Positions 3,616 to 59,094 are shown, counted from the stretch's first letter. The stretch: 64,000 nucleotides of DNA from an uncultured Candidatus Saccharibacteria bacterium (GCA_964420015.1 CAYQPO010000002.1:7997-71996); one strand, 5' to 3'. Numbers and translations are program-made. Notes: generated from the letters alone by a model not told the origin.

Positions 3616-4287
3616 ATGAAGTTTATCCTTGGCACAAAGGGCAAGATGACCACCGTGTATACCGAAGAGGGCACGGCTTTTGCCGCTACCATCATCAACG
3701 CAGCCCCCAACACGGTGACGCAGATTAAGACCGCCGAAAAAGATGGCTACGATGCGGTGCAGCTCGGGGCGGGCGAGACTAAAGCAAGCCGCATCAACAA
3801 GGCGCAAGTTAATCATGCTAAGGGCAAGGCGCTTAAAAATTTTCGCGAGCTGCGCCCGCGCCCCTCGACTAAGCTCGGGGAAATCGACAAAAACTTTCCC
3901 GAAGTAGGCTCGACGGTTGACGTATCGACCTTTGCGGTCGGCGACAAAGTGGTCGTCTCGGCAATCTCCAAGGCCAAGGGCTTTCAAGGCGTGGTCAAGC
4001 GCCACGGCTTCCATGGCGGCCCGCGTTCACACGGCCAAAAGCACTCTGAGCGCGCGCCGGGCTCAATCGGCGGCGGCGGCGGTCGCGCAGGCGGCCGTGT
4101 CGCTAAGGGTATGCGCATGGCCGGCCGCATGGGGGGTGAGTTGGTGACGGTACGCAACCTTGCAATCCTTCAGGTGCATCCCGAGACCAACGAGCTCGTG
4201 ATTTCAGGCGCGATCCCGGGCCGCAAGGGCACACTCGTGGAAATTAGGGGTCTCAACCCTTCGACTGACGCTCAGGGTAAAAAATAA
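3616..4287 (+). CDS. rplC: 50S ribosomal protein L3
   Basis: 223 aa; L3 signature (KGKGFQGVVKRHGF); operon position. Confidence 0.95.
   Translation: MKFILGTKGKMTTVYTEEGTAFAATIINAAPNTVTQIKTAEKDGYDAVQLGAGETKASRINKAQVNHAKGKALKNFRELRPRPSTKLGEIDKNFPEVGSTVDVSTFAVGDKVVVSAISKAKGFQGVVKRHGFHGGPRSHGQKHSERAPGSIGGGGGRAGGRVAKGMRMAGRMGGELVTVRNLAILQVHPETNELVISGAIPGRKGTLVEIRGLNPSTDAQGKK
4256..4281 (+). repeat. dispersed motif A copy (ACCCTTCGAC-N-GCTCAGGGTAAA) at the rplC/rplD junction
   Basis: encodes the L3 C-terminus ...NPSTDAQGKK and precedes the rplD ATG by 16 nt. Confidence 0.8.
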
Positions 4288-4296
4288 GAATTTTTT

Positions 4297-4977
4297 ATGG
4301 AAAGCAAAATCTATAACTCACAAGGCAAAGAGGCAGGGAAGATCGATCTCCCCGAGAACCTCTTCGGTTTGCCCTGGAACGCCGACCTGGTGCACCAAGT
4401 GGTGACCTCGATGCAGGCCAACGCCCGCACGCCGGTGGCACACACTAAAGATCGCGGTGAAGTACGCGGCGGTGGTCGCAAACCTTGGCAGCAAAAGGGC
4501 ACTGGTCGCGCTCGCCATGGTTCGTCGCGCTCACCCATTTGGAAGGGTGGCGGTGTAACCCACGGCCCGCGCAACGAGCGCAATTATTCGGTTAAAGTAA
4601 ACCGCTCAATGTCGCGCAAGGCGCTCCTCGTAGCACTCTCGCGCAAGTACAAAGACGGTGAGGTAGTCTTCGTCGATTCGCTCGAGACCACAGCACCAAA
4701 AACTGCTGAGGCTAAAAAGGCGATCGTGGCGCTCAGCAAAAACTTTAAGGGCCTGGAAAAGCCGCGCAACGCTGCACTGGTAGTGTTGCCAGCGCGCAGT
4801 GTCCCGACCATCAAATCCTTCCGCAACTTTGGTAACGTGGCGGTCGAGGAGGCGCGCAACCTCAATGCCTTGAGCGTCCTTTCGGCCAAGTATGTGCTCG
4901 TCTCCTCGCCCAAAGAGTCGCTTGAGGTGATCGGTAAAAATGGTAACCCTTCGACAAAGCCTCAGGGTAAAAAATAG
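4297..4977 (+). CDS. rplD: 50S ribosomal protein L4
   Basis: 226 aa; L4 family; operon position. Confidence 0.93.
   Translation: MESKIYNSQGKEAGKIDLPENLFGLPWNADLVHQVVTSMQANARTPVAHTKDRGEVRGGGRKPWQQKGTGRARHGSSRSPIWKGGGVTHGPRNERNYSVKVNRSMSRKALLVALSRKYKDGEVVFVDSLETTAPKTAEAKKAIVALSKNFKGLEKPRNAALVVLPARSVPTIKSFRNFGNVAVEEARNLNALSVLSAKYVLVSSPKESLEVIGKNGNPSTKPQGKK
4946..4972 (+). repeat. motif A copy at the rplD/rplW junction
   Basis: encodes the L4 C-terminus ...NPSTKPQGKK; the flank (aaaaataRgaattttttATG) is near-identical to the copy at 4256. Confidence 0.8.
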
Positions 4978-4986
4978 GAATTTTTT

Positions 4987-5274
4987 ATGAAAAAGCACGC
5001 ATCCCAAATACTCTTTGCCCCGCGCATTACCGAAAAGGCCTCGTTCTTAAGCGAGCAGGGTGCTTATACATTTGATGTAGCAAAAGATGCCACCAAAGAG
5101 GCGGTGGCAACCGCGATCCGCGAGGTCTACCAAGTGGTGCCACGCAAGGTTACGTTTGTCACTGTGCCGCGCAAAATGGTTATAACGCGCGGTACTAACC
5201 GCTACGGGCACACCCGCGGTGGCAAAAAGGCCTACGTCTTTTTGAAGAAAGGAGACAAAATTGAGATTGCGTAA
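4987..5274 (+). CDS. rplW: 50S ribosomal protein L23
   Basis: 95 aa; L23 family; operon position. Confidence 0.9.
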   Translation: MKKHASQILFAPRITEKASFLSEQGAYTFDVAKDATKEAVATAIREVYQVVPRKVTFVTVPRKMVITRGTNRYGHTRGGKKAYVFLKKGDKIEIA

Positions 5275-5296
5275 GGGTAAATTTTAAGAAAAATTT

Positions 5297-6142
5297 ATGA
5301 AATCCTACCGACCATACACCAAATCGCGCCGCCACATGAGCACCGTTACCTTTAAGGGAGTGCTCACGCATAGCGAGCCGCACAAAGCACTTACCCAAGG
5401 TGGCAAGCGCCACATGGGCCGCTCAGCTGGCCGAATCTCGGTGCGCCACAAGGGCGGTGGTCACAAGCGCCTCCAGCGTTTGGTCGACTTTAGCTACAAA
5501 AAGTTGGTCCCCGCCAAAGTCGAAACAGTCGAGTATGATCCCAACCGCTCGGGCTTTATTGGTGTCTTGGTGTATCGCGACGGCGAGCGCCGCTACGCGC
5601 TCTTGCCACGTTCGATTAAGGTGGGCGCCACGATCGAAACGGGCGAGGGCGTCCCCGCAACTCCAGGCAATCGCATGCCGCTTAAACATATCCCGCTTGG
5701 CACCTTTGTATACAACGTCGAGATCAAACCGGGCCAAGGTGGCAAGCTCGGCCGCTCTGCGGGCACCCACATCGAGATAGTGGCGCGCGACCAGGGCTAT
5801 GTTGACCTTAAGATGCCTTCGAGCGAAATTCGTAAAGTGCCTGAAACTTGCTGGGCGACCGTCGGCGAGGTCTCTAACGACGAGCACCACCTACGCGTGA
5901 TCGGCAAAGCTGGCCGCTCCCGCTGGCTCGGGATCCGCCCCACGGTGCGCGGTACCGCGATGAACCCGGTAGATCACCCGCACGGCGGCGGCGAGGGCCG
6001 CCAGGGCAGGGGGCTTCGCCGCGCAAAAAGCATGTGGGGTAAGCCCACCGGCAAGGGCCAAAAGACGCGCCGCCCGAAAAAGTATTCTAACTATCTCATC
6101 GTCTCTCGTCGTAAGGTTGGTAAACGCGGTCAACAGCAATAG
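5297..6142 (+). CDS. rplB: 50S ribosomal protein L2
   Basis: 281 aa; HKGGGHKR...PVDHPHGGGEG L2 signature. Confidence 0.97.
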   Translation: MKSYRPYTKSRRHMSTVTFKGVLTHSEPHKALTQGGKRHMGRSAGRISVRHKGGGHKRLQRLVDFSYKKLVPAKVETVEYDPNRSGFIGVLVYRDGERRYALLPRSIKVGATIETGEGVPATPGNRMPLKHIPLGTFVYNVEIKPGQGGKLGRSAGTHIEIVARDQGYVDLKMPSSEIRKVPETCWATVGEVSNDEHHLRVIGKAGRSRWLGIRPTVRGTAMNPVDHPHGGGEGRQGRGLRRAKSMWGKPTGKGQKTRRPKKYSNYLIVSRRKVGKRGQQQ

Positions 6143-6154
6143 AAAGAAAAACAA

Positions 6155-6180
6155 TCACCCTGGCTGAAAAGCCAGGGTGA
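6155..6180. terminator. bidirectional hairpin terminator between rplB (+) and the antisense ORF (-)
   Basis: tcaccctggc-tgaaaa-gccagggtga hairpin; the T-run is on the minus-strand side. Confidence 0.5.
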
Positions 6181-6197
6181 CCGCGCTCTGCGCATCA

Positions 6198-6464
6198 TTA
6201 TTTGCGCATCGTCTGGTAGTCTCTCAAGAGCGCGTTGTAGCGCTCTGTGCACTGCTCGCAATCTTCGGTGACGTGCTTCCACGTCAGTTCCATTGATGCG
6301 CGGTTATTGAAGAAATGGCAGAAATACGCGCTGCGTGCCAACCGGACTTCGTGGAGGCTTCTCTCTCCAGTCGCCGTAAAACTACGCAGATCATACTCCA
6401 AGCGCTGAAGCCTCGTCTCTACCGGTCCCCGGAAGGGAACCGTATCCACGGACAAGGTGCTCAT
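6198..6464 (-). CDS. hypothetical protein (88 aa) encoded antisense inside the ribosomal-protein cluster
   Basis: ORF with its own downstream hairpin terminator; no recognisable family. Confidence 0.4.
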   Translation of the reverse strand: MSTLSVDTVPFRGPVETRLQRLEYDLRSFTATGERSLHEVRLARSAYFCHFFNNRASMELTWKHVTEDCEQCTERYNALLRDYQTMRK

Positions 6465-6514
6465 GGTTCCCTCCGCACTGTCTGTCCAACAACACTGTAC
6501 ATTTTACCGGACGC

Positions 6515-6543
6515 TTGCACAAGATATCCTGCTAGGCTATAGT
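6515..6543 (+). promoter_or_regulatory. promoter TTGCAC-N17-TATAGT upstream of rpsS
   Basis: gctaggcTATAGTG extended -10 shared with other r-protein promoters. Confidence 0.5.
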
Positions 6544-6617
6544 GTCCACACATCGCGTACCGCAAGGCCCAGGCGCTCTCTGCTTGTGGCGGGTAGGCGA
6601 ATTTATATTGGCAGAGT

Positions 6618-6980: not shown

Positions 6981-7010
6981 TCTATACATCACTCGTAAAC
7001 TCGTATCCCT

Positions 7011-7370: not shown

Positions 7371-7371
7371 T

Positions 7372-8498: not shown

Positions 8499-8705
8499 AT
8501 GGCAAAGAAAACTGATTACAAAAATCAATCACACGAAGAGTTGCGCAAGGTGATTAACACCAAGCGCGAGGAGCTGCGCAGCTTGCGTTTTAATTACTCC
8601 GGTAGTAAAAATCGTGATGTTAATGCGGCGATGAAGCTGCGCCGGGAGATCGCCCGAGCGCTCACTGCGCTTAATAACCCTTCGACCAAGCCTCAGGGTA
8701 AATAA
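8499..8705 (+). CDS. rpmC: 50S ribosomal protein L29
   Basis: start moved to MAKKTDYK (in frame with ORF 8469); L29 family. Confidence 0.85.
   Translation: MAKKTDYKNQSHEELRKVINTKREELRSLRFNYSGSKNRDVNAAMKLRREIARALTALNNPSTKPQGK
8677..8703 (+). repeat. motif A copy at the rpmC/rpsQ junction
   Basis: encodes the L29 C-terminus ...NNPSTKPQGK. Confidence 0.8.
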
Positions 8706-8713
8706 GAATTTAT

Positions 8714-8980
8714 ATGGACAAGCAAAGCAACAAAGTCGGCCCTAAAGAGTTTCGCGGTACCGTCGTCTCGACCAAGATGGCACAGACGGCCGTGGTTGCA
8801 GTTTCGCGCTACGTGAAGCATCCCAAGTACAAGAAGTATATTAAGCACACCAAGAAGTTTGCGGTGCACAATCCCGAGAACCGCGCTCAAGAGGGCGAAG
8901 TGGTCACCATTCGCGCGACCCGCCCGCTTTCTAAAACGAAACACTTCGAGATCGTGTTCAACCCTGCCGCTCACTCGTAA
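8714..8980 (+). CDS. rpsQ: 30S ribosomal protein S17
   Basis: 88 aa; S17 family. Confidence 0.92.
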   Translation: MDKQSNKVGPKEFRGTVVSTKMAQTAVVAVSRYVKHPKYKKYIKHTKKFAVHNPENRAQEGEVVTIRATRPLSKTKHFEIVFNPAAHS

Positions 8981-8992
8981 ACTCGTAAATGT

Positions 8993-9373: not shown

Positions 9374-9412
9374 GGTTAAACCTTGAGAGCTCTTGTGTTA
9401 AGGTTTAACCTT
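9372..9412 (+). promoter_or_regulatory. long inverted repeat / RNA hairpin between rplN and rplX
   Basis: aaggttaaacctt - gagagctcttgtgtt - aaggtttaacctt (13-bp arms); spans the rplX RBS region. Confidence 0.35.
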
Positions 9413-9418
9413 GAATCT

Positions 9419-9649: not shown

Positions 9650-9656
9650 TGGATAG

Positions 9657-9680
9657 ACCCTTCGACAAGCTCAGGGTAAA
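9657..9680 (+). repeat. motif A copy between rplX and rplE (non-coding)
   Basis: acccttcgacaagctcagggtaaa followed by tttgaagacaaatttATG. Confidence 0.8.
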
Positions 9681-9695
9681 TTTGAAGACAAATTT

Positions 9696-10232: not shown

Positions 10233-10290
10233 GGAACAAAAAACTCCAGAGGCGTTTTTGAGATATCCTCGGCGGGAAGGAATTATAAAG

Positions 10291-10317
10291 AAAAAGGCAC
10301 GACCGTAAGGCCGTGCC
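10291..10317 (-). terminator. terminator for the antisense gene block
   Basis: ggcacgacc-gtaa-ggccgtgcc hairpin with a T-run on the minus strand. Confidence 0.45.
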
Positions 10318-10337
10318 AAATTGATTGAAGGTTCTCG

Positions 10338-10670
10338 CTACTTTTTCATGAGAGCGTCGACCCTGAATTCCGCCCACGTCTGGGGATCGTAGATCTTCGC
10401 TGAAAGTTGCTCGAGCTCGGCGATGCGATTGTCGTCCATGACAGGATGGTAGCGCTGCATGAACTCGCCGAGTGGACGGAAATCCCAGCCGCCCTTGATC
10501 TTGTAGACGTAGGCTTCTTGGTCGAGAGGGCGGTAGACCACCACTTCTTCCCAGCCTGGCGGTGCATCTTTGCAATAAGCCAGCTTGAGCCACTCGACCA
10601 CCCGTACCCCGGGTGCAGCGTCTTCGGGACGCTCGACGTGATCGAAGTACTTCACCTCCTTGATCGGCAT
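10338..10670 (-). CDS. hypothetical protein (~110 aa)
   Basis: start MPIKEVKYFDH..., 1 nt after the stop of the upstream MOSC gene (TAAcATG); no family recognised. Confidence 0.5.
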   Translation of the reverse strand: MPIKEVKYFDHVERPEDAAPGVRVVEWLKLAYCKDAPPGWEEVVVYRPLDQEAYVYKIKGGWDFRPLGEFMQRYHPVMDDNRIAELEQLSAKIYDPQTWAEFRVDALMKK

Positions 10671-10671
10671 G

Positions 10672-11136
10672 TTAATAGTCCTTCTTGGGAGGGACGACCG
10701 AGTCGCCAACCTTGAACATGCCGCTCTTGACGACTTCGGCGATCAACCCACCGCGGTCGTGGAAGACATCGCGGAAGGCAACCGACTTGCCACTGAGGAC
10801 ACTTGGCCGCAAGCAAGGATCGCAGTATTTCACGCCACGCAGTGTTGCCTCGCCGACCTGAAATTCCTTGCCGATGAGATCCATGAGCTCGACGCCGAGC
10901 GTCACGATGTTGCGGCGGGTGTCGACGTAGTCGAATCCGCTGCCAGCGAAGAAAGCTCCGTTGATGAGGCTGACTTGGCGTTTGCCTTGCCGCCCCTTAT
11001 TGAAGCTGCCTTCGCCACGGGAGTAGCGGTCTCCTTCGAGACCCTGCCCCTCAATGGCGTAGACAGTTTGCTGTTGCTGCATCGGGGCTCCTGCTTCGGA
11101 TCCGATGCAGATGGCTAATACGCTTCCGTTCGCCAT
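10672..11136 (-). CDS. MOSC-domain protein (YcbX/YiiM-like)
   Basis: start MANGSVLAICIGSEAG; GDRY...LINGAFFAGSGFDYVD...GVKYCDPC resembles the MOSC beta-barrel domain with its conserved Cys. Confidence 0.55.
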   Translation of the reverse strand: MANGSVLAICIGSEAGAPMQQQQTVYAIEGQGLEGDRYSRGEGSFNKGRQGKRQVSLINGAFFAGSGFDYVDTRRNIVTLGVELMDLIGKEFQVGEATLRGVKYCDPCLRPSVLSGKSVAFRDVFHDRGGLIAEVVKSGMFKVGDSVVPPKKDY

Positions 11137-11289
11137 TTTGTGCCTCCCTGGTTGGAACAAAGCGGCCTTTAAAATACAATGGACACCCACGATTAGCAAG
11201 GAAATTTTTGCAAAGCCTCTTTCACCGAAAGGTATTTTAGAAACGTGGAGGAGTTTTTGCGGAACAACTGTCAAGAAATAAAAAATGAA

Positions 11290-11321
11290 GAGCCTGGCGG
11301 TGAAGCCGGGCTCTTTCTTTT
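11290..11321. terminator. hairpin terminator
   Basis: gagcctggc-ggtgaa-gccgggctc + TTTCTTTT. Confidence 0.5.
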
Positions 11322-11329
11322 GTGGCGTA

Positions 11330-11761
11330 CTAGGCGGAGTAGGTGACGAGCACCTGTCGCATATAGCGGCGATGGCGAAGAAAGTTCTGAGCTTTTTTGA
11401 GGAGATCTTGGCGCAGCTCTCGCAGTATTTGCGAATACGCCACCTCGCTTTCTGGAGGCTCCTCTCCAAGCGCTTTTCGCGTCTCGATGGTCCGAAAGAG
11501 GAGAAACGCAACTGTTTCTAAACTTTTACTCGTGTTGCGCATCGCCACCACTTCTTTGAAGCAAGCTCGGCGCTTGGCCAACGTAGCTTCGAATCGACAG
11601 CCCTGGGCAAGCCGAACAAAGAAGTACTCAGAGGGTGCCTCCAGAAAGCCCTTCTCGATGGAGTAGAAAGGTTCTTTCAGAGCCGGGCCAAGAAAAAGTT
11701 TCTCTGCGCTCGCGGTTGTGGCCAGACAGAGCCACGTAATCAAAACAAGAATGGACCTCAT
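11330..11761 (-). CDS. secreted hypothetical protein (signal peptide MRSILVLITWLCLATTASA)
   Basis: start chosen at the signal-peptide Met inside ORF 11330..11875. Confidence 0.5.
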   Translation of the reverse strand: MRSILVLITWLCLATTASAEKLFLGPALKEPFYSIEKGFLEAPSEYFFVRLAQGCRFEATLAKRRACFKEVVAMRNTSKSLETVAFLLFRTIETRKALGEEPPESEVAYSQILRELRQDLLKKAQNFLRHRRYMRQVLVTYSA

Positions 11762-11811
11762 CTGCAGCCTCCTTGGCTGGTTTCTACTCAGCAGTATATA
11801 CAAAAAACAAA

Positions 11812-11837
11812 GGCCCGCCGATGAGGCGGGCCTTTTT
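11812..11837. terminator. hairpin terminator
   Basis: ggcccgcc-gatga-ggcgggcc + TTTTT. Confidence 0.6.
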
Positions 11838-11853
11838 GATTGCGGGGCGAGGA

Positions 11854-12102
11854 TCAGGCAATGATCTTGAGCCACCGGCCGTTGATCCAGAAGAACGCCT
11901 TGGGGTGGGGGTAGCCATCCTTATCGATGATCTGGATGTCCTCGTCGAGGACCTCCCAGTCGTCGCTGCGGAGAATTTCGCCCATGTGAGTGGTCATCTC
12001 CTCCGGCGACTCGTGGTGGAGTGATACCTCGGCGAAAGCATCGAGGAGGGCGTCGTGAGCTTGGTCCTCCTTCGACTTGAGCGCAAGAACAGCTGCAGCC
12101 AT
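11854..12102 (-). CDS. hypothetical acidic protein (82 aa)
   Basis: ORF with a downstream terminator; no family recognised. Confidence 0.4.
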   Translation of the reverse strand: MAAAVLALKSKEDQAHDALLDAFAEVSLHHESPEEMTTHMGEILRSDDWEVLDEDIQIIDKDGYPHPKAFFWINGRWLKIIA

Positions 12103-12181
12103 AGTGGCTCCCTACGTTGCCGTTGACCTGTATAAACTAGTAACCCAATTCGTAAGAGTTGTCAACTTTTTACCCAGATAT

Positions 12182-12210
12182 TTGCATTATTTATAGCCCT
12201 AGGCTATAGT
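12182..12210 (+). promoter_or_regulatory. promoter TTGCAT-N17-TATAGT restarting the spc-type operon at rpsN
   Basis: cctaggcTATAGTG extended -10; followed by an ~80-nt structured leader (ggtctccc...ggggagatacc). Confidence 0.5.
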
Positions 12211-12292
12211 GCTCGAAGCCCAATCAGGGCCCCTTTTTCTTGTTAGGTCTCCCAGACATAGGTTGGGGAGATACCGACAGGATCATAGCCAT

Positions 12293-12867: not shown

Positions 12868-13401
12868 ATGAGCCGCCTTGCTAAACGCCCCATTGCTATA
12901 CCGCCCAAAACCGAGGTTACCGTCTCCGGTTCTTCGGTCGTGGTTAAGGGTCCCAAGGGCACGCTTGAAAAGCCGCTGCACCGCCTGGTAAACATCGAGG
13001 TGGGAGGCGAGGGTGTGCAGGTTTCTCCCAAGGGCGAGAGTCTTGAGAGCAAGGCGCTTATTGGTACGTACGCTTCACACGTGCGCAACATGCTCCAAGG
13101 GGTCAACAGTGGTTTTTCGAAGAAGCTCTTGGTTGAGGGGGTGGGCTACAAATGGGACCTTAAGGGTAAACAAATCCAGCTTGCGCTGGGCTTCTCTCAC
13201 CCCGTGCTTGTAGACGTCCCCGAGGGGATTGCGATCAGAATAGACAAGGGAACGATGGAGATCGTTGGCGCCGACAAAGAGTTGGTCGGCCAGTTTGCCG
13301 CCAACATCCGCGCATTAAAAAAACCCGAGCCGTATAAAGGCAAGGGCATCCGCTACGAGGGTGAGGTTGTCCGTCGCAAGCAAGGCAAGAAGGCTGCATA
13401 G
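12868..13401 (+). CDS. rplF: 50S ribosomal protein L6
   Basis: start at [12 protein letters not shown] within ORF 12856; L6 family. Confidence 0.92.
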
Positions 13402-13430
13402 TTCGATATGACTCACCACCAGTAACCACT
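13402..13430 (+). promoter_or_regulatory. motif C with conserved 5-codon uORF (ATG ACT CAC CAC CAG TAA) directly upstream of rplR
   Basis: ttcgatATGACTCACCACCAGTAAccactATG; a near-identical copy at ~43246 precedes the 98-aa pilus-operon gene (ATG ACT CAC TAC CGG TAA). Confidence 0.5.
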
Positions 13431-13730
13431 ATGAAACTCCAACGCCGCCACAACCGCATACGCGCCAAGATCTCTGGCACTTCGGAGCGCCCGCGCTTGG
13501 CAGTGTATCGCTCCAATCGCTTTATGGAGGCGCAGGTTATTGATGACACAAGGGGCCGTACGCTTTTGAGCGGCAAGATGGCTGACCCCGAAAAGCTCGG
13601 GAGTGAGATTGCTTCTAAAGCCAAAGTGCAAGGGATCACCAAGGTGGTGTTCGATCGCGGCGGTTTTCGGTATAGTGGCAAGGTCGCTAAGCTAGCGGAG
13701 GCGGCGCGCAAGGGTGGTCTGGAATTCTAA
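13431..13730 (+). CDS. rplR: 50S ribosomal protein L18
   Basis: 99 aa; L18 family. Confidence 0.9.
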
Positions 13731-13763
13731 AAATCACTCGTAAACTCGTATTCAACACATTGT

Positions 13764-16467: not shown

Positions 16468-17037
16468 ATGCAACTCCACACATTTTTGATGATGGGTAGG
16501 CCCGGCGCGGGGAAAGGGACTCAAGCTAAGCTCTTGGCCAAAAAGTTGGGTGCCGAAATTTATTCTTCGGGCAATCGCTTGCGCGAGATGGCTAAAGGTC
16601 ATGGATTTGTGGCCGAAAAAGTAAAACATGTGATAGAGCGCGGCGACCTACTCCCCCCATGGTTCTCCTCGCATCTGTTTGTTGACCTCTTGCTCGGGCG
16701 CGAGCCGAGTGAGCTGGTGGTGTTCGAAGGGGCGTGCCGCCGGCTTGAGGAGGCACAGGCGTTTGACCAAACCGCCACCTGGCTCGAGCGTCCGTACAAA
16801 GCGATCTTTTTAAATATTTCTGACCAAGAGGTAGAAAAACGCCTGCGCTTACGTGCGGGGGTAGAGGGGCGTAAAGATGATGCTTCAGACACGATCTCGC
16901 ATCGCATTAAAGAGTACGAAGAGAAAACTGCTCCCGCCGTTGCATTTTTTAAAGAGCGCGGCGTGTTGGTCGAAATTAATGGCGAGCAATCGGTGGAGCA
17001 GGTGCAGACTGCAATTGCTACAGCGCTTGGTCTCTGA
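16468..17037 (+). CDS. adk: adenylate kinase
   Basis: GRPGAGKGTQA P-loop; 189 aa. Confidence 0.93.
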   Translation: MQLHTFLMMGRPGAGKGTQAKLLAKKLGAEIYSSGNRLREMAKGHGFVAEKVKHVIERGDLLPPWFSSHLFVDLLLGREPSELVVFEGACRRLEEAQAFDQTATWLERPYKAIFLNISDQEVEKRLRLRAGVEGRKDDASDTISHRIKEYEEKTAPAVAFFKERGVLVEINGEQSVEQVQTAIATALGL

Positions 17038-17061
17038 CAATCAATCGCAAGCTCGTATCCC

Positions 17062-18512: not shown

Positions 18513-18763
18513 TCAAACCGAATCTCAAAACTAGAATCCACAACCATAGAAAGGTGATTTTGGTATACTAGGCTCAGGACTACCGAAGGCAAAAGTTACT
18601 TAAGTGATCTACAGGGAAGCTCGAAACCCCTCGCAATCGCGAGATTGTCTGCGCCGCCGTGGCGGCGCGATAGAGCACCCACTTAGCGCAACAAGTAGAC
18701 GCTTTGCTTTCGAAGTCCTACTAAAAATACCGCCTGGAGGCGGCATTTTTAGTAGTCCTGAGC

Positions 18764-20179
18764 TTGTCGAAGGGCTATAATACTTTGGTGCAATCAACAC
18801 TTTACTTTTACGGCGCGGCGGGCTCGGTGACGGGCTCGCACTTTTTACTAGAAATAGGCAGCCCCTCGACTTCGCTCGGGACAACCAGCACCAAGCTGCT
18901 GGTTGATTGCGGTTTGCGCCAAGGGATGGGCGAGGAGCACAATTGGGACCCGTTCCCCTATAACCCAGCCGAAGTGTCGCATCTGTTGGTGACCCACGCT
19001 CATCTCGACCACGTTGGCCGGATTCCTTTTTTGGTTAAAAACGGGTTTAAGGGGGAGATCATTTCGACCAAGGCTACACGCGCGCTAGCCGAGCCGATGC
19101 TCTACGACGCGCTCGAAATTTTGCAGCACAATGCAAAACATAATGGGCGCCCCGAGCTCTATGGTGAGCAAGATGTTGAATCAACGTTGCGTCTATGGCG
19201 CGGGGTCGACTATCACGACAAAATTGCTTTGTCCGGCGAGGTAGAGGCGCAGTTGTATGACGCAGGGCACATCTTGGGCTCGGCGATGGTGGTTCTTGGC
19301 AGAGCCGGGCGCGCTATCGTCTTTACCGGAGATGTGGGTGGCGGTAACTCGCCGCTCTTAGCTCCGACCGAAGAGTTACCCGTAGTCAATTATGTGGTAC
19401 TGGAGGGCACGTATGGGGACAAACTGCGCCCCGAAGATCCCGACCGTTTAGAAAAGCTCGAAGACGTGATCGAGGACACCGCCGCGCGCGGTGGCACGCT
19501 CGTGGTGCCCGCATTTTCCACCGAGCGCACGCAGGATCTCCTCTTCGATATTCGTAGGCTCATGCTCGAGAAGCGTGTGCCCTTAATGCCGGTGTATCTC
19601 GACTCGCCACTGGCCGAAAAGATCACCGAAGCTTATTTGCAGTATCCAAACTATTTTGCACCAAAGATCGCAAAGCGCGTCGAAGATGGAGAAAAGATCT
19701 TTTCCTTCCCCGAGCTGCACTACGTAAGCACGCGCGAGGAGTCTCAAGCGCTCAATGCCAAGGAGGGAAGTAAGATTATTTTAGCCGGCTCGGGCATGAG
19801 CAGTGGCGGACGCGTGTTTAGCCACGAGCGCGCTTACTTGCCCGACCCGAATTCGACCGTGCTCATTGTGGGATATCAGGCTGCAGGCACAACTGGCCGG
19901 CAGCTTATCGAAGGCTCCAAAACAATCAAGGTGCGCAGCGGCAACGAGGTAGTCGAGGTCAGGGCGCATGTGGAGCAACTCTACGGCTACTCCGCCCACC
20001 GCGATGGCGAGGGCTTGCTCGATTTTGCCAACCAAGCAGCGACACAGCATGCCGAGGAGATTTTTGTGGTCCATGGCGAGCCGCAAGCGACGATGTTTTT
20101 GGCACAGCGTATCCGGGACTATTTGGGGACTAAGGCCACTGCGCCCGAAGCGGGGAGCGCTGTGCAACTCGACTTTTAG
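18764..20179 (+). CDS. MBL-fold beta-CASP ribonuclease (RNase J / CPSF-like)
   Basis: HAHLDHVGRIP metallo-beta-lactamase motif plus beta-CASP region; TTG start as in the ORF track, a GTG at 18791 is an alternative. Confidence 0.8.
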   Translation: MSKGYNTLVQSTLYFYGAAGSVTGSHFLLEIGSPSTSLGTTSTKLLVDCGLRQGMGEEHNWDPFPYNPAEVSHLLVTHAHLDHVGRIPFLVKNGFKGEIISTKATRALAEPMLYDALEILQHNAKHNGRPELYGEQDVESTLRLWRGVDYHDKIALSGEVEAQLYDAGHILGSAMVVLGRAGRAIVFTGDVGGGNSPLLAPTEELPVVNYVVLEGTYGDKLRPEDPDRLEKLEDVIEDTAARGGTLVVPAFSTERTQDLLFDIRRLMLEKRVPLMPVYLDSPLAEKITEAYLQYPNYFAPKIAKRVEDGEKIFSFPELHYVSTREESQALNAKEGSKIILAGSGMSSGGRVFSHERAYLPDPNSTVLIVGYQAAGTTGRQLIEGSKTIKVRSGNEVVEVRAHVEQLYGYSAHRDGEGLLDFANQAATQHAEEIFVVHGEPQATMFLAQRIRDYLGTKATAPEAGSAVQLDF

Positions 20180-21382: not shown

Positions 21383-21733
21383 TTAGGCTATTTTGTTGAC
21401 CACCCGGGCAAAACTTGCGGGGTTGGTGGCGGCGAGCTCGGCGAGCATTTTGCGATTGATCTTGATGCCTTTTTTATTCATCGCACCGATAAACTTGCTG
21501 TAAGAAAAATCACTGCTAATACCCCTAAGCCCAGCATTAAGGCGGACATTCCACAAGCGGCGAAAGTCGTTCTTCTTGTCGCGGCGGTGGGCAAAGGCAT
21601 ATTTGCCCGCGTGGAAGATCGCCTCCTTGGCCATGCGCTTCTTGGTCGAGCGACCAAAACGATAGCCCTTGGCCTGCGCCAAGATATTCTTGCGGCGTTT
21701 GTTGCTCGTTTTGCCTCCTTTGACGCGTGCCAT
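21383..21733 (-). CDS. rplT: 50S ribosomal protein L20
   Basis: 116 aa; L20 family. Confidence 0.95.
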   Translation of the reverse strand: MARVKGGKTSNKRRKNILAQAKGYRFGRSTKKRMAKEAIFHAGKYAFAHRRDKKNDFRRLWNVRLNAGLRGISSDFSYSKFIGAMNKKGIKINRKMLAELAATNPASFARVVNKIA

Positions 21734-21754
21734 AAATTTTTCTTAAAATTTAAA

Positions 21755-21964: not shown

Positions 21965-21979
21965 GATTTTGTCTTCAAA

Positions 21980-22003
21980 ATCACCCTGAGCTTGTCGAAG
22001 GGT
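21980..22003 (-). repeat. motif A copy between infC and rpmI (minus strand)
   Basis: acccttcgacaagctcagggtgattttgaagacaaaatcATG; same motif plus flank as the rplX/rplE copy. Confidence 0.8.
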
Positions 22004-22005
22004 TA

Positions 22006-28732: not shown

Positions 28733-28765
28733 TCCTTCGACTACGCTCAGGACAAGAAAACAAAA

Positions 28766-29434: not shown

Positions 29435-29509
29435 GCGCGAGTAGCTCAGTGGTAGAGCGTCCGTCTTATACACGGATGGTCGTAGGTTCGATCCCTACCT
29501 CGCGCACCA
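29435..29509 (+). tRNA. tRNA-Ile, anticodon UAU (reads AUA)
   Basis: cloverleaf GCGCGAG/TA/GCTC..GAGC/G/TCCGT-CTTATAC-ACGGA/TGGTC/GTAGG-TTCGATC-CCTAC/CTCGCGC-A-CCA. Confidence 0.8.
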
Positions 29510-43244: not shown

Positions 43245-43274
43245 TTTGATATGACTCACTACCGGTAACACACT

Positions 43275-52639: not shown

Positions 52640-54649
<2,010 letters not shown>

Positions 54650-54693: not shown

Positions 54694-54723
54694 TTGACAA
54701 CATATCTCTCGGTATAGTATAGT
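54694..54723 (+). promoter_or_regulatory. strong promoter TTGACA-N18-TATAGT driving the DGR target gene
   Basis: seen in sequence; ~135-nt leader with a good SD (AAAGGAGGA) before ATG 54859. Confidence 0.5.
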
Positions 54724-54858
54724 AGAGTGTCAGTTCTTTGATAGGGAATCAGCATTCGCCGCAGCGAAAAGCGCCTTTATTAGGACGTTTCTCGCTGTGG
54801 CGGACCCGATCGGGGACGCTTGAACGGCACTGTGAAAAGCGCTCAAAAGGAGGACTCC

Positions 54859-55521
54859 ATGAGCGAACGACAGCTTGCTGAACTCACCGGCAATCTCGTG
54901 CGGCACCAGCACTGCTTCGGTGCGATGTCGAACGACGACCGTCAGTGGACAATCAACAATCCGGCGGCGGCGATTGGCCTGTTTGCCGAGGCGGTGAAGA
55001 ACCGCAACAGCGGTACGGCGGCCGAGCGGAAGTCGCTCGAAAAGAAGAAGCAGCCAAAGCTTCTTGTCTCGGACGGCCACTACGCAGCCGTCGAGGCCAC
55101 TGAGCGTCACGAACCAGGTACGTTCTGGCAGACGCGCTCCGGCTTGTACGTGTACGACGACTTTCGTACACGCGTCGTCGCGGCAGCCACGCCGACCGAA
55201 GCTGGAGCGACGTTCAAGAAGCTCCCGCGCTTCAAGCTCGGCCGTAATGCCACTGGCGAGGAATTGAAGACGGCGCGTCCGAATGGTATTTGGACGGCGA
55301 CCGACTTCTGCCCCTGGCTTGCCGCAAAGCTTGCAAAGCAGGCGAAAGGCGAGGACGGTGAGTTCCTCACCAACGGTTGGGCCAACCTATTCTTGGTCGA
55401 AGGAGTTGGAGGCGAGGTCTTCGTCGTCCGCGTGCGCTGGGGCGTCGGCTTGTGGCTCGTCTACGCGTGGCCTCTCGGCCACGGCTGGCACGATGGTCGC
55501 CAGTTCGGCTCTCGCAACTGA
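54859..55521 (+). CDS. DGR variable (target) protein with C-terminal C-type-lectin-like variable region
   Basis: 220 aa; start inside ORF 54820; the C-terminal 36 codons coincide with the VR; ends ...WHDGRQFGSRN*. Confidence 0.8.
   Translation: MSERQLAELTGNLVRHQHCFGAMSNDDRQWTINNPAAAIGLFAEAVKNRNSGTAAERKSLEKKKQPKLLVSDGHYAAVEATERHEPGTFWQTRSGLYVYDDFRTRVVAAATPTEAGATFKKLPRFKLGRNATGEELKTARPNGIWTATDFCPWLAAKLAKQAKGEDGEFLTNGWANLFLVEGVGGEVFVVRVRWGVGLWLVYAWPLGHGWHDGRQFGSRN
55409..55519 (+). repeat. DGR variable repeat (VR)
   Basis: ~109-111 bp; identical to the TR at 55847-55957 except at 20-21 positions, every one a TR adenine. Confidence 0.9.
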
Positions 55522-55537
55522 CCAATTGCAACTTTGT

Positions 55538-55558
55538 GCGCCCGCCTAAGGCGGGCGC
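55538..55558 (+). promoter_or_regulatory. GC-rich hairpin just downstream of VR/IMH (DGR homing cruciform-like element)
   Basis: gcgcccgcc-taa-ggcgggcgc, 9-bp stem, 3-nt loop, 17 nt after the VR end; a second IR, ccccttgga...tccaagggg, lies at 55564-55612. Confidence 0.6.
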
Positions 55559-55846
55559 ATTGACCCCTTGGACACTCTGGCACTGTGCCGGAATCCAAGG
55601 GGTCTTTCGTTTTGATATAATGGCCCTGAAACCTTTGGTGATGCGGCGGTTAGGGCTTCCGTGTGGAGGTTTTGGAAGAGACAAATGCCTGAGTTCTTGC
55701 GGCCAAGGCTTCAAGAAGAGTGCGTTGAATCTTTCTAAAAAATAATTGGTAGTTGGTACTTGAAATTGGCGGACTTATAAGGTCCCACATTCGATACAGC
55801 CCGGAGAGTATTCGGTGGGTGGTGGTTCAGAAGGTTTCGAGTACGA

Positions 55847-55957
55847 GAGGCGAGGTCTTCGTCGTCAACGTGAACTGGAACGACGGCAAGTGGAACGTCA
55901 ACACGTGGCAACTCGGCAACGACTGGAACGATGGTAACCAGTTCGGCTCTCGCAACT
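55847..55957 (+). repeat. DGR template repeat (TR)
   Basis: contains 8 AAC plus AAG and CAA codons at the positions that vary in the VR; followed by a hairpin tctctcgc-N10-gcgagaga. Confidence 0.9.
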
Positions 55958-55977
55958 CTAGTGATTTCTCTCGCGCT

Positions 55978-56265
55978 CTATGGTGCGAGAGTTTTTGCAA
56001 CCAACCCTTTTCTCCACCCGCCTAGTATGCGTCCAAGTTCGTGCGTTTTTTCTGATAGATTCACGTATTTTTTATCGTCTAGCGCCTGCAGTTCCCATGC
56101 GACACGCAGAAGGAATTTTAACGTATCCGTTTTCTTGATTGCAATTTCAATCGTTGGCAACTTGTTTGCTCGACCCTGGTAACTCGCTGTAAAGAGCAAT
56201 TCAAGGATTTGAATAAACAAGCTATCTATTTTATCGCCAAGCGTATAGCGAGACTTTTTCGGCAA
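55978..56265 (-). CDS. avd: DGR accessory variability determinant (Avd, four-helix-bundle); start codon apparently lost to a frameshift in the G11/C11 tract
   Basis: aligns to Bordetella-phage bAvd (HLPKKSRYTLGDKI~IPRKHGVAREM; ...HELGRILGGW~EVGRILGSW). In-frame helix-1 coding continues upstream to 56355 with no start codon; the ATG at 56380 is off by one frame across the homopolymer. Confidence 0.7.
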   Translation of the reverse strand: MPKKSRYTLGDKIDSLFIQILELLFTASYQGRANKLPTIEIAIKKTDTLKFLLRVAWELQALDDKKYVNLSEKTHELGRILGGWRKGLVAKTLAP

Positions 56266-56307
56266 ATGGTCGCGGCATTCGTGCCAAAACTTGTATACTG
56301 CTACAGC

Positions 56308-57335
56308 ATGCTCGATAACAGGAAGAATTCGTTGGGGGGGGGGGTCGTAAAGGACTCACGCATACATACGAGAATATCATTTCTGTTGAAAACTTGCTCT
56401 CTGCGTGGCGCGAGTTCTGTCTTGGCAAACAAATTAAAAAATATTTAAGGGATTTTCAATTTTTTTGGATGGACACATTTCTTTGCTTTCATTCCGATTT
56501 AAAAAAAAAACCATAAAAACACGGACGATATCACGCCTTCAACATCTCCGACCCAAAACCGCGCAACATTCACAAGGCCTCGGTACGCGATCGTCTGCTC
56601 CACCATGCCATCTACCGAATATTGTATCCATATTTTGATAAGAAATTTGTATTCGATTCCTATTCTTGCAGGATAGGCAAGGGCACCCACAAGGCCATGA
56701 ACCGCTTCCGATCTTTTGCCTACCAAGTGTCCAAAAACCACACCCGCACTTGCTGGGTACTCAAGTGCGACATCCGTAAGTTCTTTGCGAGCATTGACCA
56801 CCAGATACTGTACGCAATCCTCGAAAAGTACATACAAGACGAGGCAATGCTCTGGTTGCTTCGAGAAGTTGTTAATAGTTTTTCATCAAGGTCGAACCTT
56901 GATGTTGGTCTGCCGCTCGGCAATCTCACGAGTCAGCTTTTGGTCAACGTTTACCTAAACGAGTTCGACCAGTATGTGAAGCACCAACTCAAGGTTAAGT
57001 ACTACATCCGCTACGCGGACGACTTCGTGCTCCTTTCGCACGACAAATCGGTACTACAACAAACACTTCCATATATGGAAGTGTTTCTGAGGGAGCATCT
57101 CAAACTAAGCTTCCATCCGGACAAGGTATACATTAAGACTCTGGCTTCGGGTGTCGACTTTCTCGGCTGGGTACACTTTGCTGACCACCGCGTGTTGCGT
57201 ACTGCTACCAAGCGACGGATGTTGCGACGGCTGTGCGAACGATTGGGGCAGGAGGGAGCAGAGGCAACGAGGCAGGCGTACTTGGGAATGTTGAGTCAAG
57301 GTAATACCAAAAAATTGCGGGACAGGTTAGTATAG
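56308..57335 (+). pseudogene. DGR reverse transcriptase, apparently disrupted (5' frameshift at the G11 tract plus an in-frame TAA at 56514 right after an A10 tract); intact ORF only 56622..57335
   Basis: frame-0 translation aligns with Bordetella Brt across the stop: ENIISVENLLSAWREF...DLKKKP*KHGRYHAFNISDPKPRNIHKASVRDRLL...CRIGKGTHKA...GLPLGNLTSQLLVNVY...YIRYADDFVLL (YxDD). Confidence 0.8.
56334..56344. repeat. homopolymeric G11 (C11) tract in the antisense overlap of the avd and RT 5' ends
   Basis: seen in sequence; the avd frame closes with run length 10/13, the RT N-terminus from ATG 56308 with 9/12; the current 11 fits neither. Confidence 0.85.
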
Positions 57336-57339
57336 CTAC

Positions 57340-57642
57340 ATGATTTCGCGCGAGGAAGTGCTCAATTTAGCCGAGCTCTGCCGGCTCAAACTTACCGACG
57401 AAGAGGTAGCTGCTTTGCAAAAGGATATCTCCAGTATTTTGGAGTATGTCGGCCAAGTCAATACAGTTTCGCTGCCTGACAAAAAAGATGAGAAGCCAGT
57501 GGTGCGCAATGTAATGCGTGAGGATGTGCCGCGCGAGGGTAGCCACCCAATGCAGGGCAAAGAGGAGGCTCTGCGCGCACAATTTCCAACCCGGGAGAAA
57601 GACTTTAATGTGGTGCGCAAAATAATCCAGAAGGATGAATAG
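57340..57642 (+). CDS. gatC: Asp/Glu-tRNA amidotransferase subunit C
   Basis: 100 aa; GatC family. Confidence 0.85.
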   Translation: MISREEVLNLAELCRLKLTDEEVAALQKDISSILEYVGQVNTVSLPDKKDEKPVVRNVMREDVPREGSHPMQGKEEALRAQFPTREKDFNVVRKIIQKDE

Positions 57643-57672
57643 TGGATTGATATATCAATCCACTTCAAGAGT

Positions 57673-59094
57673 ATGAAATTAAATGAGCTCACGATCGTAG
57701 AGGCTTCTAAAAAACTCGCCGCGGGCGAGATAACTTCGGTTGCGCTCACCCAAGCATGCTTAGACGAAGTTGAGAAACGCAACGGAACATTGAATGCATA
57801 TTTGGAGGTGTTTGATGATGCATTAGAACAAGCAAAAAGAGCAGATACCCTTCGACAAGCTCAGGGTAAAAGTGCTCACGCACTTTTAGGCATCCCGCTT
57901 GTGATCAAAGACAACATCCTAATTGAGGGTAAAAAAGTTTCTGCAGCGAGCAAAATGCTCGAAAATTATGTTGCAACCTACGACGCAACGGTTATCAAAA
58001 AGCTCAAAGCGGCAGGCGCGGTCTTTTTAGGCCGTACCAATATGGACGAGTTTGCGCTCGGCGGCTCTACCGAAAACTCCGCTTTTGGGGTTACTAAGAA
58101 TCCGCACGATGAATCGCGCGTGGCTGGCGGGACTTCGGGTGGTTCGGCGGCAGCAGTTGCTGCACATTTGTGCTTGGGTGCTCTTGGTACCGACACTGGA
58201 GGTTCGGTGCGTAACCCGGCGAGTTTTTGCGGCATCGTAGGATTGAAGCCAACCTACGGCGTAGTATCACGCTCGGGCGTTATTGCCGCAGTGTCATCGT
58301 TTGACCAGGTTGGCCCGATGGCAAAAACGGTTGAGGATGCCGAGCTGCTCTTTACTGCCATCCGCGGCAAAGATATTTTGGATAGCACCACAATTGATGA
58401 AAAAACTTACGAAACAAAAACAATCCAGACAAAAAATATAGGAGTTTTTGATTTGAAATCTACTGGATGGGAAGGTGGTATCGATAGTGATGTTCAGAAG
58501 TTGTATCAGTCTTTCCAAAAAAAACTTGAGGGAATGGGTTATGAAGTTGTAACTATTCCTATGGTATATCTACAGCCTGCGCTCGCTTCTTACTACATCA
58601 CCAACTTTGCGGAGGTTTCCTCTAACCTTGCGCGCTTCGACGGTGTCCGCTATGGGCTGCACAGTAAAGGCACCTCATTGTTTGAGGATTATGCCAAGAG
58701 CAAGGCTGAGGGCTTTGGCCCAGAGACGCGCCGCCGCATTATGCTCGGCACCTATGTACTTTCGGCCGGTTACTATGACTCATACTACGGTAAAGCAGTC
58801 GCTGCACGCGAACAGCTACGCCAGGAATTTATAAAAGCATTCGAGTTGGTAGATGCGATCATCACACCCACGATGCCCACCCCGGCCTGGAAGGAAGGGG
58901 AGAAGTCCGATCCGCTTTCAGCGTATTTGGCAGACGTCTTTACGGTCTCAGCAAACCTTACGGGGAACCCAGCGATATCTATTCCAATGGGAACTATTGA
59001 AAAAGACGGTAAGCAGTTGCCGGTAGGCATCCAACTCACCGCCGCGCACGGGGATGAAGCGGGACTGTTTGCGCTCGCTCGCTCCATAGAATAA
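57673..59094 (+). CDS. gatA: Asp/Glu-tRNA amidotransferase subunit A
   Basis: amidase signature GGSSGGSAAAVA; 473 aa; carries an in-frame copy of dispersed motif A at 57847. Confidence 0.95.
   Translation: MKLNELTIVEASKKLAAGEITSVALTQACLDEVEKRNGTLNAYLEVFDDALEQAKRADTLRQAQGKSAHALLGIPLVIKDNILIEGKKVSAASKMLENYVATYDATVIKKLKAAGAVFLGRTNMDEFALGGSTENSAFGVTKNPHDESRVAGGTSGGSAAAVAAHLCLGALGTDTGGSVRNPASFCGIVGLKPTYGVVSRSGVIAAVSSFDQVGPMAKTVEDAELLFTAIRGKDILDSTTIDEKTYETKTIQTKNIGVFDLKSTGWEGGIDSDVQKLYQSFQKKLEGMGYEVVTIPMVYLQPALASYYITNFAEVSSNLARFDGVRYGLHSKGTSLFEDYAKSKAEGFGPETRRRIMLGTYVLSAGYYDSYYGKAVAAREQLRQEFIKAFELVDAIITPTMPTPAWKEGEKSDPLSAYLADVFTVSANLTGNPAISIPMGTIEKDGKQLPVGIQLTAAHGDEAGLFALARSIE
57847..57870 (+). 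repeat. motif A copy embedded in-frame inside gatA (encodes ...TLRQAQGK...)
   Basis: acccttcgacaagctcagggtaaaa. Confidence 0.75.

Follow-up and report, generated by a model that had tools for sequence, protein, structure and literature searches.

A small hairpin repeat at ribosomal-gene junctions of an uncultured Saccharibacteria bacterium resembles repetitive extragenic palindromes and recurs across bacterial phyla

Dispersed copies of a small hairpin motif, here called H1, were analyzed in a 64-kb stretch of DNA (the window; 64,000 nucleotides, GCA_964420015.1 CAYQPO010000002.1:7997-71996) from an uncultured Candidatus Saccharibacteria bacterium, and all feature coordinates refer to the full-length window. 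H1 comprises 19-24 bases, with a stem ACCCT/AGGGT closing the loop TCGACAAGCTC or a 13-nt variant of it; six conserved copies, three diverged copies and some borderline ones were found. The reading that we favor, with moderate confidence, is that H1 is the local form of a widespread family of tiny inserted hairpin repeats of the repetitive extragenic palindromic (REP) kind. The window copies are members of a hairpin family with the loop TCGACA(A/G)GCTC, a T-A closing pair and at least three further pairs. Copies have been gained at different sites and in either orientation in close relatives, and they are about five-fold over-represented in this genome. An earlier note on this DNA had proposed a hairpin with mobility like that of REP sequences or miniature inverted-repeat transposable elements (MITEs), and also a translation-initiation, coupling or RNase-processing element. 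The hairpin and the REP-like mobility stand up, whereas a dedicated translation or RNase signal does not.

Three of the conserved copies form the ends of ribosomal-protein genes. A search for ACCCTTCGAC-N4-GCTCAGGGTAAA with up to three mismatches returned three matches (4256, 4946 and 8677, each with at most one mismatch), against 0.00 expected from shuffled sequences. These plus-strand copies read ACCCT TCGACTGACGCTC AGGGT in the L3 tail (4256..4278), ACCCT TCGACAAAGCCTC AGGGT in the L4 tail (4946..4968) and ACCCT TCGACCAAGCCTC AGGGT in the L29 tail (8677..8699), and they encode ..NPSTDAQGKK, ..NPSTKPQGKK and ..NNPSTKPQGK, just as had been described. Their loop has two extra bases and thus 13 nt. 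The other three, ACCCT TCGACAAGCTC AGGGT, have the canonical 11-nt loop: two are non-coding, between the L24 and L5 genes (9657..9677, plus strand) and between infC and rpmI (21983..22003, minus strand), and the third lies in frame inside gatA as T-LRQAQGK (57847..57867, plus strand). The middle of the motif is therefore a loop of 11 nt in three copies and 13 nt in three, not the single variable base of the earlier description. All six are sense-oriented. Five of them, as had been claimed of every conserved copy, precede a same-strand ATG, which lies 11-15 nt past their end; the gatA copy, within its gene, precedes no start codon.

The diverged copies lie in other settings. CCCT TCGACAAGCTC AGGA (18756..18774, minus strand) is antisense to its flanking genes and adjoins, upstream of a beta-CASP ribonuclease gene, a terminator-like hairpin of 17 bp. 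TCCT TCGACTACGCTC AGGA (28733..28752, plus strand) directly follows the ftsH stop codon, ahead of a GC-rich terminator-like hairpin, and its loop variant also occurs in two loci of relatives, L246 and L250 (three-digit L-numbers are labels for such loci). A further variant, absent from the earlier note, lies reverse-oriented in the S10 leader (2263..2282, minus strand; CTCC TCGACTACGCTC GGAG, also written CTCC GAGCGTAGTCGA GGAG). Loose matches at 3861, 37894, 51927 and 53194 are probably due to chance: shuffled windows yield one to three of this kind, and the match at 53194 lies in a LigA stretch of equal length in all relatives. Separately, a conserved coding stretch of EF-Tu (..GAGCTCGACAAGCCGTTC.., ELDKPF; window 1587-1597) resembles part of the loop and gives recurrent false matches in loose scans, in the window as in L246, L253, L255, L269 and L276. 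Between the L14 and L24 genes, a hairpin with a 13-bp stem at 9377-9418 (AAGGTTAAACCTT GAGAGCTCTTGTGTT AAGGTTTAACCTT) has a loop loosely like the reverse-complement loop GAGCTTGTCGA and could be a reversed copy that has decayed.

A covariance model made solely from 145 copies of other phyla was run on the window and recovered four copies at 30-34 bits, with E-values from 4e-8 to 7e-7: the gatA copy (57843-57871, E 3.8e-8), the infC-rpmI copy (21979-22007, minus strand, E 6.1e-8), the L24-L5 copy (9653-9681, E 8.1e-8) and the antisense copy (18751-18779, minus strand, E 6.8e-7), which had been called degenerate and proves to be a good family member. The coding-tail copies have two extra bases in their loop and score lower: E was 0.006 for the L4 tail (4942-4972), 0.13 for the L29 tail (8673) and 0.26 for the L3 tail (4252). 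The copy after ftsH (28728) had an E of 0.19. The motif of the earlier note is real.

The family extends far beyond this genome. The 17-mer core CCTTCGACAAGCTCAGG was found in at least 120 stretches in IMG/VR, and the exact 22-mer CCCTTCGACAAGCTCAGGGTRA in at least 120 stretches of species-representative genomes, from about 15 phyla among the matches listed. Carriers among these matches include Cyanobacteria, Nitrospirota, Patescibacteria, Alpha-, Beta- and Gammaproteobacteria, Zixibacteria, Chloroflexota, Bacteroidota, Ignavibacteria, Calditrichota, Eremiobacterota, Deferribacterota, Clostridia, Spirochaetota, Desulfobacterota and Myxococcota, together with the isolates Caulobacter radicis, Tistlia consotensis, Chakrabartia godavariana and Henriciella aquimarina. 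The motif also occurs on plasmids of Sphingobium, Novosphingobium, Moraxella osloensis, Sinorhizobium, Nitratireductor and Comamonas, where it is always unannotated. As a control, 17-mers from two other junction motifs of the same genome gave no match. The motif was present in none of 5,426 complete E. coli genomes, and cultured phages yielded only an 18-nt coding coincidence in a tail-fibre gene. Rfam 15 has no model that matched the motif at the gathering score, either in the window or in 18 motif-rich loci, and one irrelevant weak match had an E-value of 3. The motif sequence is absent from a REP survey and its supplementary lists (PMC3733652). Searches of open-access text, outside which an earlier description is possible, returned unrelated primers and no relevant match, whether made by the DNA sequence, the corresponding RNA or the peptides that it encodes. 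The motif is thus present both elsewhere and in relatives, where its absence would have spoken against the earlier proposal. Descent does not readily account for a 22-base string that is the same from Patescibacteria to Proteobacteria and whose stem covaries.

The fold is supported by covariation. The family combines a variable, covarying stem of 4-9 bp with an almost invariant 11-nt loop. The loop and the closing T-A pair are constant across foreign copies, and the next three pairs vary with compensation (CCC/GGG, TGC/GCA, TGG/CCA, GGC/GCC and TAC/GTA); outside the window, the outer stem is often TCRY...RYGA. In 145 distinct copies from other phyla, not chosen by a search pattern, the stem covariation score was 0.401, compared with 0.185 for shuffled alignments; none of 500 shuffles scored as high, and slid pairing partners reached at most 0.165. 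Cells changed on both sides numbered 253, against 129 expected. The main pair compositions were UA59/CG43/GC16 at 6-24, GC61/CG44/AU10 at 7-23 and CG97/GC22 at 8-22. The hairpin of the earlier note is thereby borne out. An excess of G.T wobble pairs on the TCGACAAGCTC strand (31 vs 14 and 15 vs 1), confounded by subfamily descent, is suggestive of strand-specific folding.

The arrangement of copies was also compared. Among 254 copies in 120 genome loci, neighboring pairs were inverted in 68 cases and direct in 27, and in the window and its relatives every copy stands alone. By a crude gene call outside the window, 29 copies lie between convergent genes, 16 between divergent genes and 40 within long open reading frames (ORFs). 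In tandem contexts across the 120 genomes, 19 copies are sense and 29 antisense, so no preference for the sense strand is seen. Two likenesses of the motif were tried and rejected. For 14-nt likenesses to the 16S rRNA regions GCTCAGGACGAACG and GACTGACGCTCAGG, taken as possible rRNA mimicry, 427 copies gave no excess of 11-mer identities to E. coli 16S and 23S rRNA (20 vs 13-37 in shuffled sets), and a likeness to the T-arm and D-arm of tRNA (TTCGA, AGCTCAG) is at odds with the loop length and the closing pairs, with a G at the would-be G53 in only 22 of 149 copies.

Gain and loss could be followed at the ribosomal-gene junctions. The window gene order is tuf, S10 gene, Rce1-like gene, L3, L4, L23, L2 ... 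secY, adk, map, and further genes include infC-rpmI-rplT, ftsH, type IV pilus genes, ligA and gatCA. Eighty loci encoding L4 relatives of 55-70% identity were retrieved, and each junction of the whole S10/spc operon was set against those of relatives. The L3-L4 copy is found only in the window, L246 and L250; L246 has the odd loop of the window copy (TCGACTGAAGCTC), and L250 a canonical one. Copy-free L3 proteins (in L244, L245, L248, L249, L253, L254, L268, L270 and others) end in ..VEIRG*, followed by, for example, TAAtttttATG. The copies at L4-L23, L29-S17 and L24-L5 are found in the window only. In relatives, L4 ends in ..GKKVK*, ..SKKI* or ..GKKTK*; compared with these, the window has an insert, GGTAAAAATGGTAA|CCCTTCGACAAAGCCTCAGGGTAA|AAAATAG, in which CCCTTCGACAAAGCCTCAGGGTAA is a 24-nt block of eight codons flanked by GGTAA. 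The L29 copy lies in the context AATAA|CCC..GGGTAA|ATAAG and is absent in nine of nine relatives compared. L3, L4 and L29 were lengthened because a 24-nt block landed just before their stop codons. The tails are side effects of the nucleotide motif, specific to the lineage, rather than features conserved in the proteins. The relatives have copies of their own: between L14 and L24 in L246, between L23 and L2 in L250 (with the second hairpin, H2, described below) and in its S14 leader, in the S10 leader of L253, and in reversed orientation after the L2 gene in L269. At the hairpin position of the S10 leader, L250 has CCCC GACA GGGG, L253 a forward copy and the window the reversed variant. At E<0.01, about 11 distinct matches were found in 802 kb of relatives, compared with five in the 64-kb window, a roughly five-fold difference in density. 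Relatives without copies at the same junctions show gain and loss of the REP/MITE-like kind. As a side note, the contig of L328 carries ligA-gatC-gatA at both ends in opposite orientation; it resembles an inverted-duplicate assembly artefact and was double-counted in the raw match tally. The tuf-S10 spacer (2154-2302) contains a leader that is kept in relatives (GTAAGCGTWAGCTAAYCGGRKATAGGTTAC, a variable hairpin, then GAGAACTAG..ATG), with a terminator-like hairpin before it, and may be an autoregulatory S10-operon leader.

Both orientations were met at one site inside gatA. The window belongs to a Patescibacteria genome that resembles Candidatus Adlerbacteria. The named closest GatA homologues belong to Candidatus Adlerbacteria and Kaiserbacteria (70-78% identity), and 45 of the 60 closest proteins read ADARRAAGESHPLLGIP (ADARRAAGES) at the insertion point, a segment that varies in length in solved GatA structures. 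At the same point, the window and three relatives have ADxLRQAQGKxA, one protein has RRTHSTSSGQE, three have RRALSLSKG.., and several have 5-6 extra residues with no motif left. In the DNA, the forward motif is read in frame 1 (LRQAQGK) in the window, L327, L328 and L329 and in frame 3 (STSSGQ) in L325, while the reverse complement GCCCTGAGCTTGTCGAAGGGC (LSLSKG) is present in L326 and L331 and decayed in L332. LigA of L328 and L329 carries the forward motif as LRQAQGK in the linker before the BRCT domain; window LigA is without it. All but one of the six frames of the core are open (forward LRQAQG, FDKLR and STSSG; reverse PELVEG and LSLSK), which makes in-frame survival inside genes possible. 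A hairpin inside gatA (AAAAGTGC TCAC GCACTTTT) was considered as an H2 part of the element and rejected, being not conserved in L327, L328 or L329.

Among known systems, REP and REPIN repeats mobilized by REP-associated tyrosine transposases (RAYTs, of the Y1/HUH type) are the closest kind (Di Nocera et al. 2013, PMC3733652; Bertels & Rainey 2011, PMC3116915). The REP/REPIN GTAG and CGTC superfamilies have GC-rich stems of 8-9 bp, loops of 4-5 nt and an unpaired tag, and are lineage-specific; REP copies occasionally lie in frame inside genes, including those for DNA ligase and tRNA synthetases (PMC3733652). H1 shares with them a hairpin repeat of 20-40 nt, dispersed and mostly intergenic, a copy number that differs between relatives and occasional in-frame intragenic copies. 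Inverted doublets, as in REPINs, are common for the family in other phyla, and the copies of the window and its relatives are single. With nine to ten copies in 64 kb and more than 250 in 120 foreign loci, it is a dispersed, multi-copy imperfect palindrome as REP sequences are. Unlike them, it has no GTAG or CGTC tag (its flanks are TAA/CAA...TAA in the window and TCRY...RYGA elsewhere), its stem varies while the 11-nt loop is conserved and common to the phyla listed above, and no repeat-flanked RAYT gene was found in the window, in L327 or in 240 loci. It does not fit the definition of a MITE, which has terminal inverted repeats matching an insertion sequence, a target-site duplication and a length of 50-500 bp: the unit is 19-24 nt, its sole inverted repeat is the variable stem, and the TAA or GGTAA repeats are short and inconsistent. 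Intrinsic terminators, which are GC-rich hairpins with a run of T behind them, differ too: H1 stems have 4-5 bp and an 11-nt loop without a T run.

Other small inserts offer partial parallels. Rickettsia palindromic elements (Ogata et al. 2000, cited in PMC3733652) reportedly insert in frame into genes, where surface loops and termini tolerate them, and are said to measure about 100-150 bp and to be restricted to Rickettsia; H1 is likewise a palindromic in-frame insertion, but of 19-24 nt and across bacterial phyla. Mycobacterial interspersed repetitive units (Supply et al. 1997) are said to be operon-junction repeats oriented with transcription, whose small ORFs keep the flanking stop and start adjacent, and reportedly are tandem units of 46-101 bp, specific to mycobacteria and without a conserved-loop hairpin. 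H1 resembles them in its operon-junction placement and read-through frames. HUH Rep proteins nick sites in hairpin loops at the origins of rolling-circle plasmids and CRESS-DNA viruses, which are single origins per replicon. The variable stem and conserved loop of H1 recall such sites, and would suit a protein that recognizes the single-stranded loop of a hairpin, but as a functional analogy only; H1 is dispersed, has no sequence similarity to them and has no Rep gene nearby.

If H1 is a REP-like inserted repeat, it would spread as a single-stranded DNA hairpin, with the loop as recognition determinant for a trans-acting enzyme, most plausibly an HUH/Y1-type nuclease-transposase as in REP/RAYT or IS200/IS605 systems. 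The window copies adjoin TAA-rich, A/T-rich junctions of ribosomal-protein cistrons or terminators, or lie within leaders or in a tolerant GatA loop. In the L3, L4 and L29 genes, the frame runs through the insert and leaves a stop codon 8-9 nt from the next ATG. This would preserve termination-reinitiation coupling in a genome without Shine-Dalgarno sequences, and the tails may be a by-product of it.

A number of results weigh against such a repeat, or at least do not follow from it. No transposase and no Y1_Tnp gene lies within the window. All-against-all clustering of 3,748 ORFs from 240 loci revealed no recurrent neighbor family other than prophage structural genes; in addition, ORFs enclosed by inverted copies belong to ordinary genes, glmM and ftsZ among them, and Pfam scans of ORFs beside dense copy clusters returned nothing relevant. 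A Y1_Tnp gene (IS200/RAYT-like, 233 residues) does lie immediately upstream of gatC in L327 (777-1478), but it is flanked by TGGAGAATCTGATTCTCCA-type palindromes unrelated to the motif. TAA or GGTAA flanks three or four copies; the TAA repeat may be a target duplication, although these flanks are ambiguous as such. By a hand count, insertion sites in the clade lean to the sense orientation, 13 vs 4. The three carriers of the L3-L4 copy form a polytomy with all identities at 76-77%, and one old gain with losses is indistinguishable there from repeated gains. H1 precedes five of seven H2-type start regions and none of 36 other starts. Finally, orthologous copies are conserved in place, whereas a purely selfish insert should decay. 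In the four forward gatA copies, third-codon identity is 45/48 in the eight motif codons and about 37% in the flanks, where synonymous sites are saturated; in L326 and L331 the reverse copies agree at all 21 nt, with divergent flanks; and the L3-L4 cassette of H1 and H2 is 92-98% identical among the window, L246 and L250, compared with 67-76% for the adjacent L3 and L4 coding DNA. As it holds in both orientations, the conservation points to a constraint on DNA rather than to an mRNA signal.

This conservation is the chief support for the main, though less probable, alternative, in which the hairpin or its duplex is a DNA site for binding or processing by a widespread host protein that reads the invariant 11-nt loop on single-stranded or cruciform DNA, so that copies, once inserted, are kept by host selection in essential genes in either orientation. 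Such a site would account for the identical loop across phyla and for an orientation independent of transcription. The Ala codon just after the gatA motif is missing from motif-free GatA and differs among the four carriers (GCT, GCA, GCC, GCC), which marks the forward insertion as old and shared. Orthologous copies, those at L3-L4 among them, are also more alike than paralogous copies within one genome, which excludes within-genome concerted evolution (homogenisation). However, the distribution is patchy, from the absence in E. coli to the few copies in most relatives, some orthologous copies have decayed (L329 and L332), several GatA lineages keep inserts of 5-6 residues with the motif gone, and no candidate protein is known. 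If this explanation is true, a host element that spans bacterial phyla has so far gone unrecognised.

An mRNA element is unlikely as the primary nature of H1, and its assessment involves H2, which directly follows each junction copy of H1 and ends at the ATG. H2 has an A/T stem with an AAGA or AGGA loop. Behind the L3-tail copy it is AAAAAAT AAGA ATTTTTT (4279..4296, plus strand), which includes the L3 stop, belongs to the repeat family D7 and is followed by the L4 ATG at 4297; behind the L4-tail copy it occupies 4969..4986 (plus strand), before the L23 ATG at 4987; and the 8677..8699 copy is followed by TAAAT AAGA ATTTA (plus strand) and the S17 ATG at 8714. Non-coding copies are followed by AAATTTG AAGA CAAATTT (9678..9695, plus strand; L5 ATG at 9696) and GATTTTG AAGA CAAAATC (21965..21982, minus strand; rpmI ATG at 21964; folding z -2.0), and these two differ by two compensatory double changes in a 7-bp TTTGAAGACAAA stem. 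H2 also occurs alone, as the 21-mer AAATTTTAAGAAAAATTTATG, at the L23-L2 junction (5279..5299, plus strand, D7, with an AGGGT remnant before it) and, identically, at the rpmI-rplT junction (21731..21751, minus strand). This 21-mer is an A/T hairpin with the loop AAG, ends in the start codon and makes up the start regions of L2 and L20. It is also found at the L14-L24 junction of L246, which hints that start regions are exchangeable modules in this genome, where Shine-Dalgarno sequences are lacking. Because L250 has TAAattttacgaagatttATG without H1 at its L24-L5 junction, H2 is at least partly the ancestral junction.

Under this explanation, H1 and H2 would act jointly as a portable cassette for translation initiation or coupling, or as an RNase processing site, in genes that lack Shine-Dalgarno sequences. 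The lack of such sequences, noted earlier for this DNA, is confirmed: their 4-mer core occurs at seven of 43 starts (19% in the background) and their 5-mer at none of 43, while start regions are A+T-rich (63%, compared with 45% for the window). Moreover, the upstream stop in ribosomal-protein cistrons is mostly 1-12 nt from the next ATG, the arrangement expected under termination-reinitiation coupling. The sense orientation of all six conserved copies, the ATG 11-15 nt past five of them, the sense lean in the clade, the association of H1 with H2-type starts and the compensatory changes in H2 would all suit a cassette, as would near-identical H1+H2 cassettes at different junctions (L14-L24 in L246, L23-L2 in L250 and L4-L23 in the window); either H1 favors TAA and A/T-rich targets, or the H1+H2 cassette moves as a whole. 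Yet most relatives translate the same genes without H1 and keep short TAA..ATG junctions, H2 stands without H1 at 5279 and 21731, some copies are intragenic (gatA and ligA), those at 18756 and 2263 are antisense, relatives have reversed ones in gatA, and no sense bias is seen across phyla. RNA folding is weak and unremarkable, with energies of -5 to -10 kcal/mol and z-scores between +0.6 and -2. With E. coli rRNA as a proxy, duplex energies of the motif with 16S and 23S rRNA stay within the shuffled range, so H1 does not behave as a Shine-Dalgarno-like or rRNA-complementary initiation element, and pairing of the H2 loops with the anti-Shine-Dalgarno tail is weak, at -1.5 to -4.2 kcal/mol. A secondary role in cis may nevertheless exist, given the in-place conservation of orthologous copies.

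Still less probable is an origin without transposition, in which junction cassettes are copied by gene conversion or illegitimate recombination and the identity across phyla reflects horizontal exchange of DNA. A 33-nt block that is nearly identical at L3-L4 and L4-L23 (family D6/D7), the identical 21-mer H2 at two junctions and the clade-specific junction modules M2 and M3, which also recur at different junctions, are compatible with such copying; insertions in both orientations at one gatA site, inverted doublets in other phyla, covarying stems with a fixed loop and the 22-mer shared across the listed phyla would all be left unexplained. Selection for the peptide sequence of tails and inserts can practically be dismissed: the tails are hydrophilic and Lys-rich, as are many ribosomal-protein termini, but the same nucleotides give NPST..QGK, LRQAQGK, STSSGQ or LSLSKG depending on frame and orientation, non-coding copies are equally conserved, and the tails are absent in almost all relatives.

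The identity of the motif across phyla calls for a mobilising activity of very low specificity or for a host factor that the phyla have in common, and the in-place conservation of copies provides a concrete test of selfish against functional DNA. Tiny inserts of this type reshape essential proteins, as in the tails of L3, L4 and L29 and the loops of GatA and LigA, and in a genome without Shine-Dalgarno sequences stop-start coupling limits where they persist. Many spurious 'hypothetical proteins' of metagenomes probably go back to this family (LRQAQ.., FDKLR.., STSSG.., PELVEG, LSLSK). The test of selfish against functional DNA is within experimental reach in cultured carriers, among them Caulobacter, Sphingobium, Sinorhizobium and Moraxella.

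Two further junction motifs were noted in the window. The first, ATCACTCGTAAACTCGTAT, closely precedes the starts of L22, L14, S5 and map (6981-7006, 8963-8988, 13726-13751 and 17033-17058) and is also present in the relatives L247, L251 and L252, but not in IMG/VR or in the loci from other phyla. The second, TAG-TTYGATATGACTCACYACCRGTAAC..ATG (13399-13430 and 43242-43274), always begins at a TAG stop; in relatives it occurs at the S8-L6 or L6-L18 junction (L245, L257, L270 and L276) and between pilus genes in L324.

The interval from ligA to gatC holds a complete diversity-generating retroelement (54820-57335). It consists of a target gene (54820-55521) with the variable repeat at 55409-55519, a GC hairpin just after this repeat (55538-55561, TGCGCCCGCC TAAG GCGGGCGCA), a template repeat (55847-55957) that differs from the variable repeat at template adenines only, a bAvd gene (55978-56265, minus strand) and a reverse transcriptase gene (56622-57335). 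A tie between the motif and this neighbor of gatCA was considered and rejected, as the template and variable repeats are unrelated to H1.

The ribosomal-protein cluster is broken twice: by a 476-nt spacer between L2 and S19 (6143-6617), a spacer that is also large and variable in relatives, and by about 2 kb of opposite-strand genes from L5 to S14 (10233-12289), among them a gene for a MOSC-domain protein (10672-11511, minus strand). No L30 gene is present in the S5-L15 interval. A tmRNA gene (79.6 bits) lies at 24673-25047 on the minus strand, and ARAGORN identified a tRNA-Ile gene with the anticodon TAT at 29435-29509.

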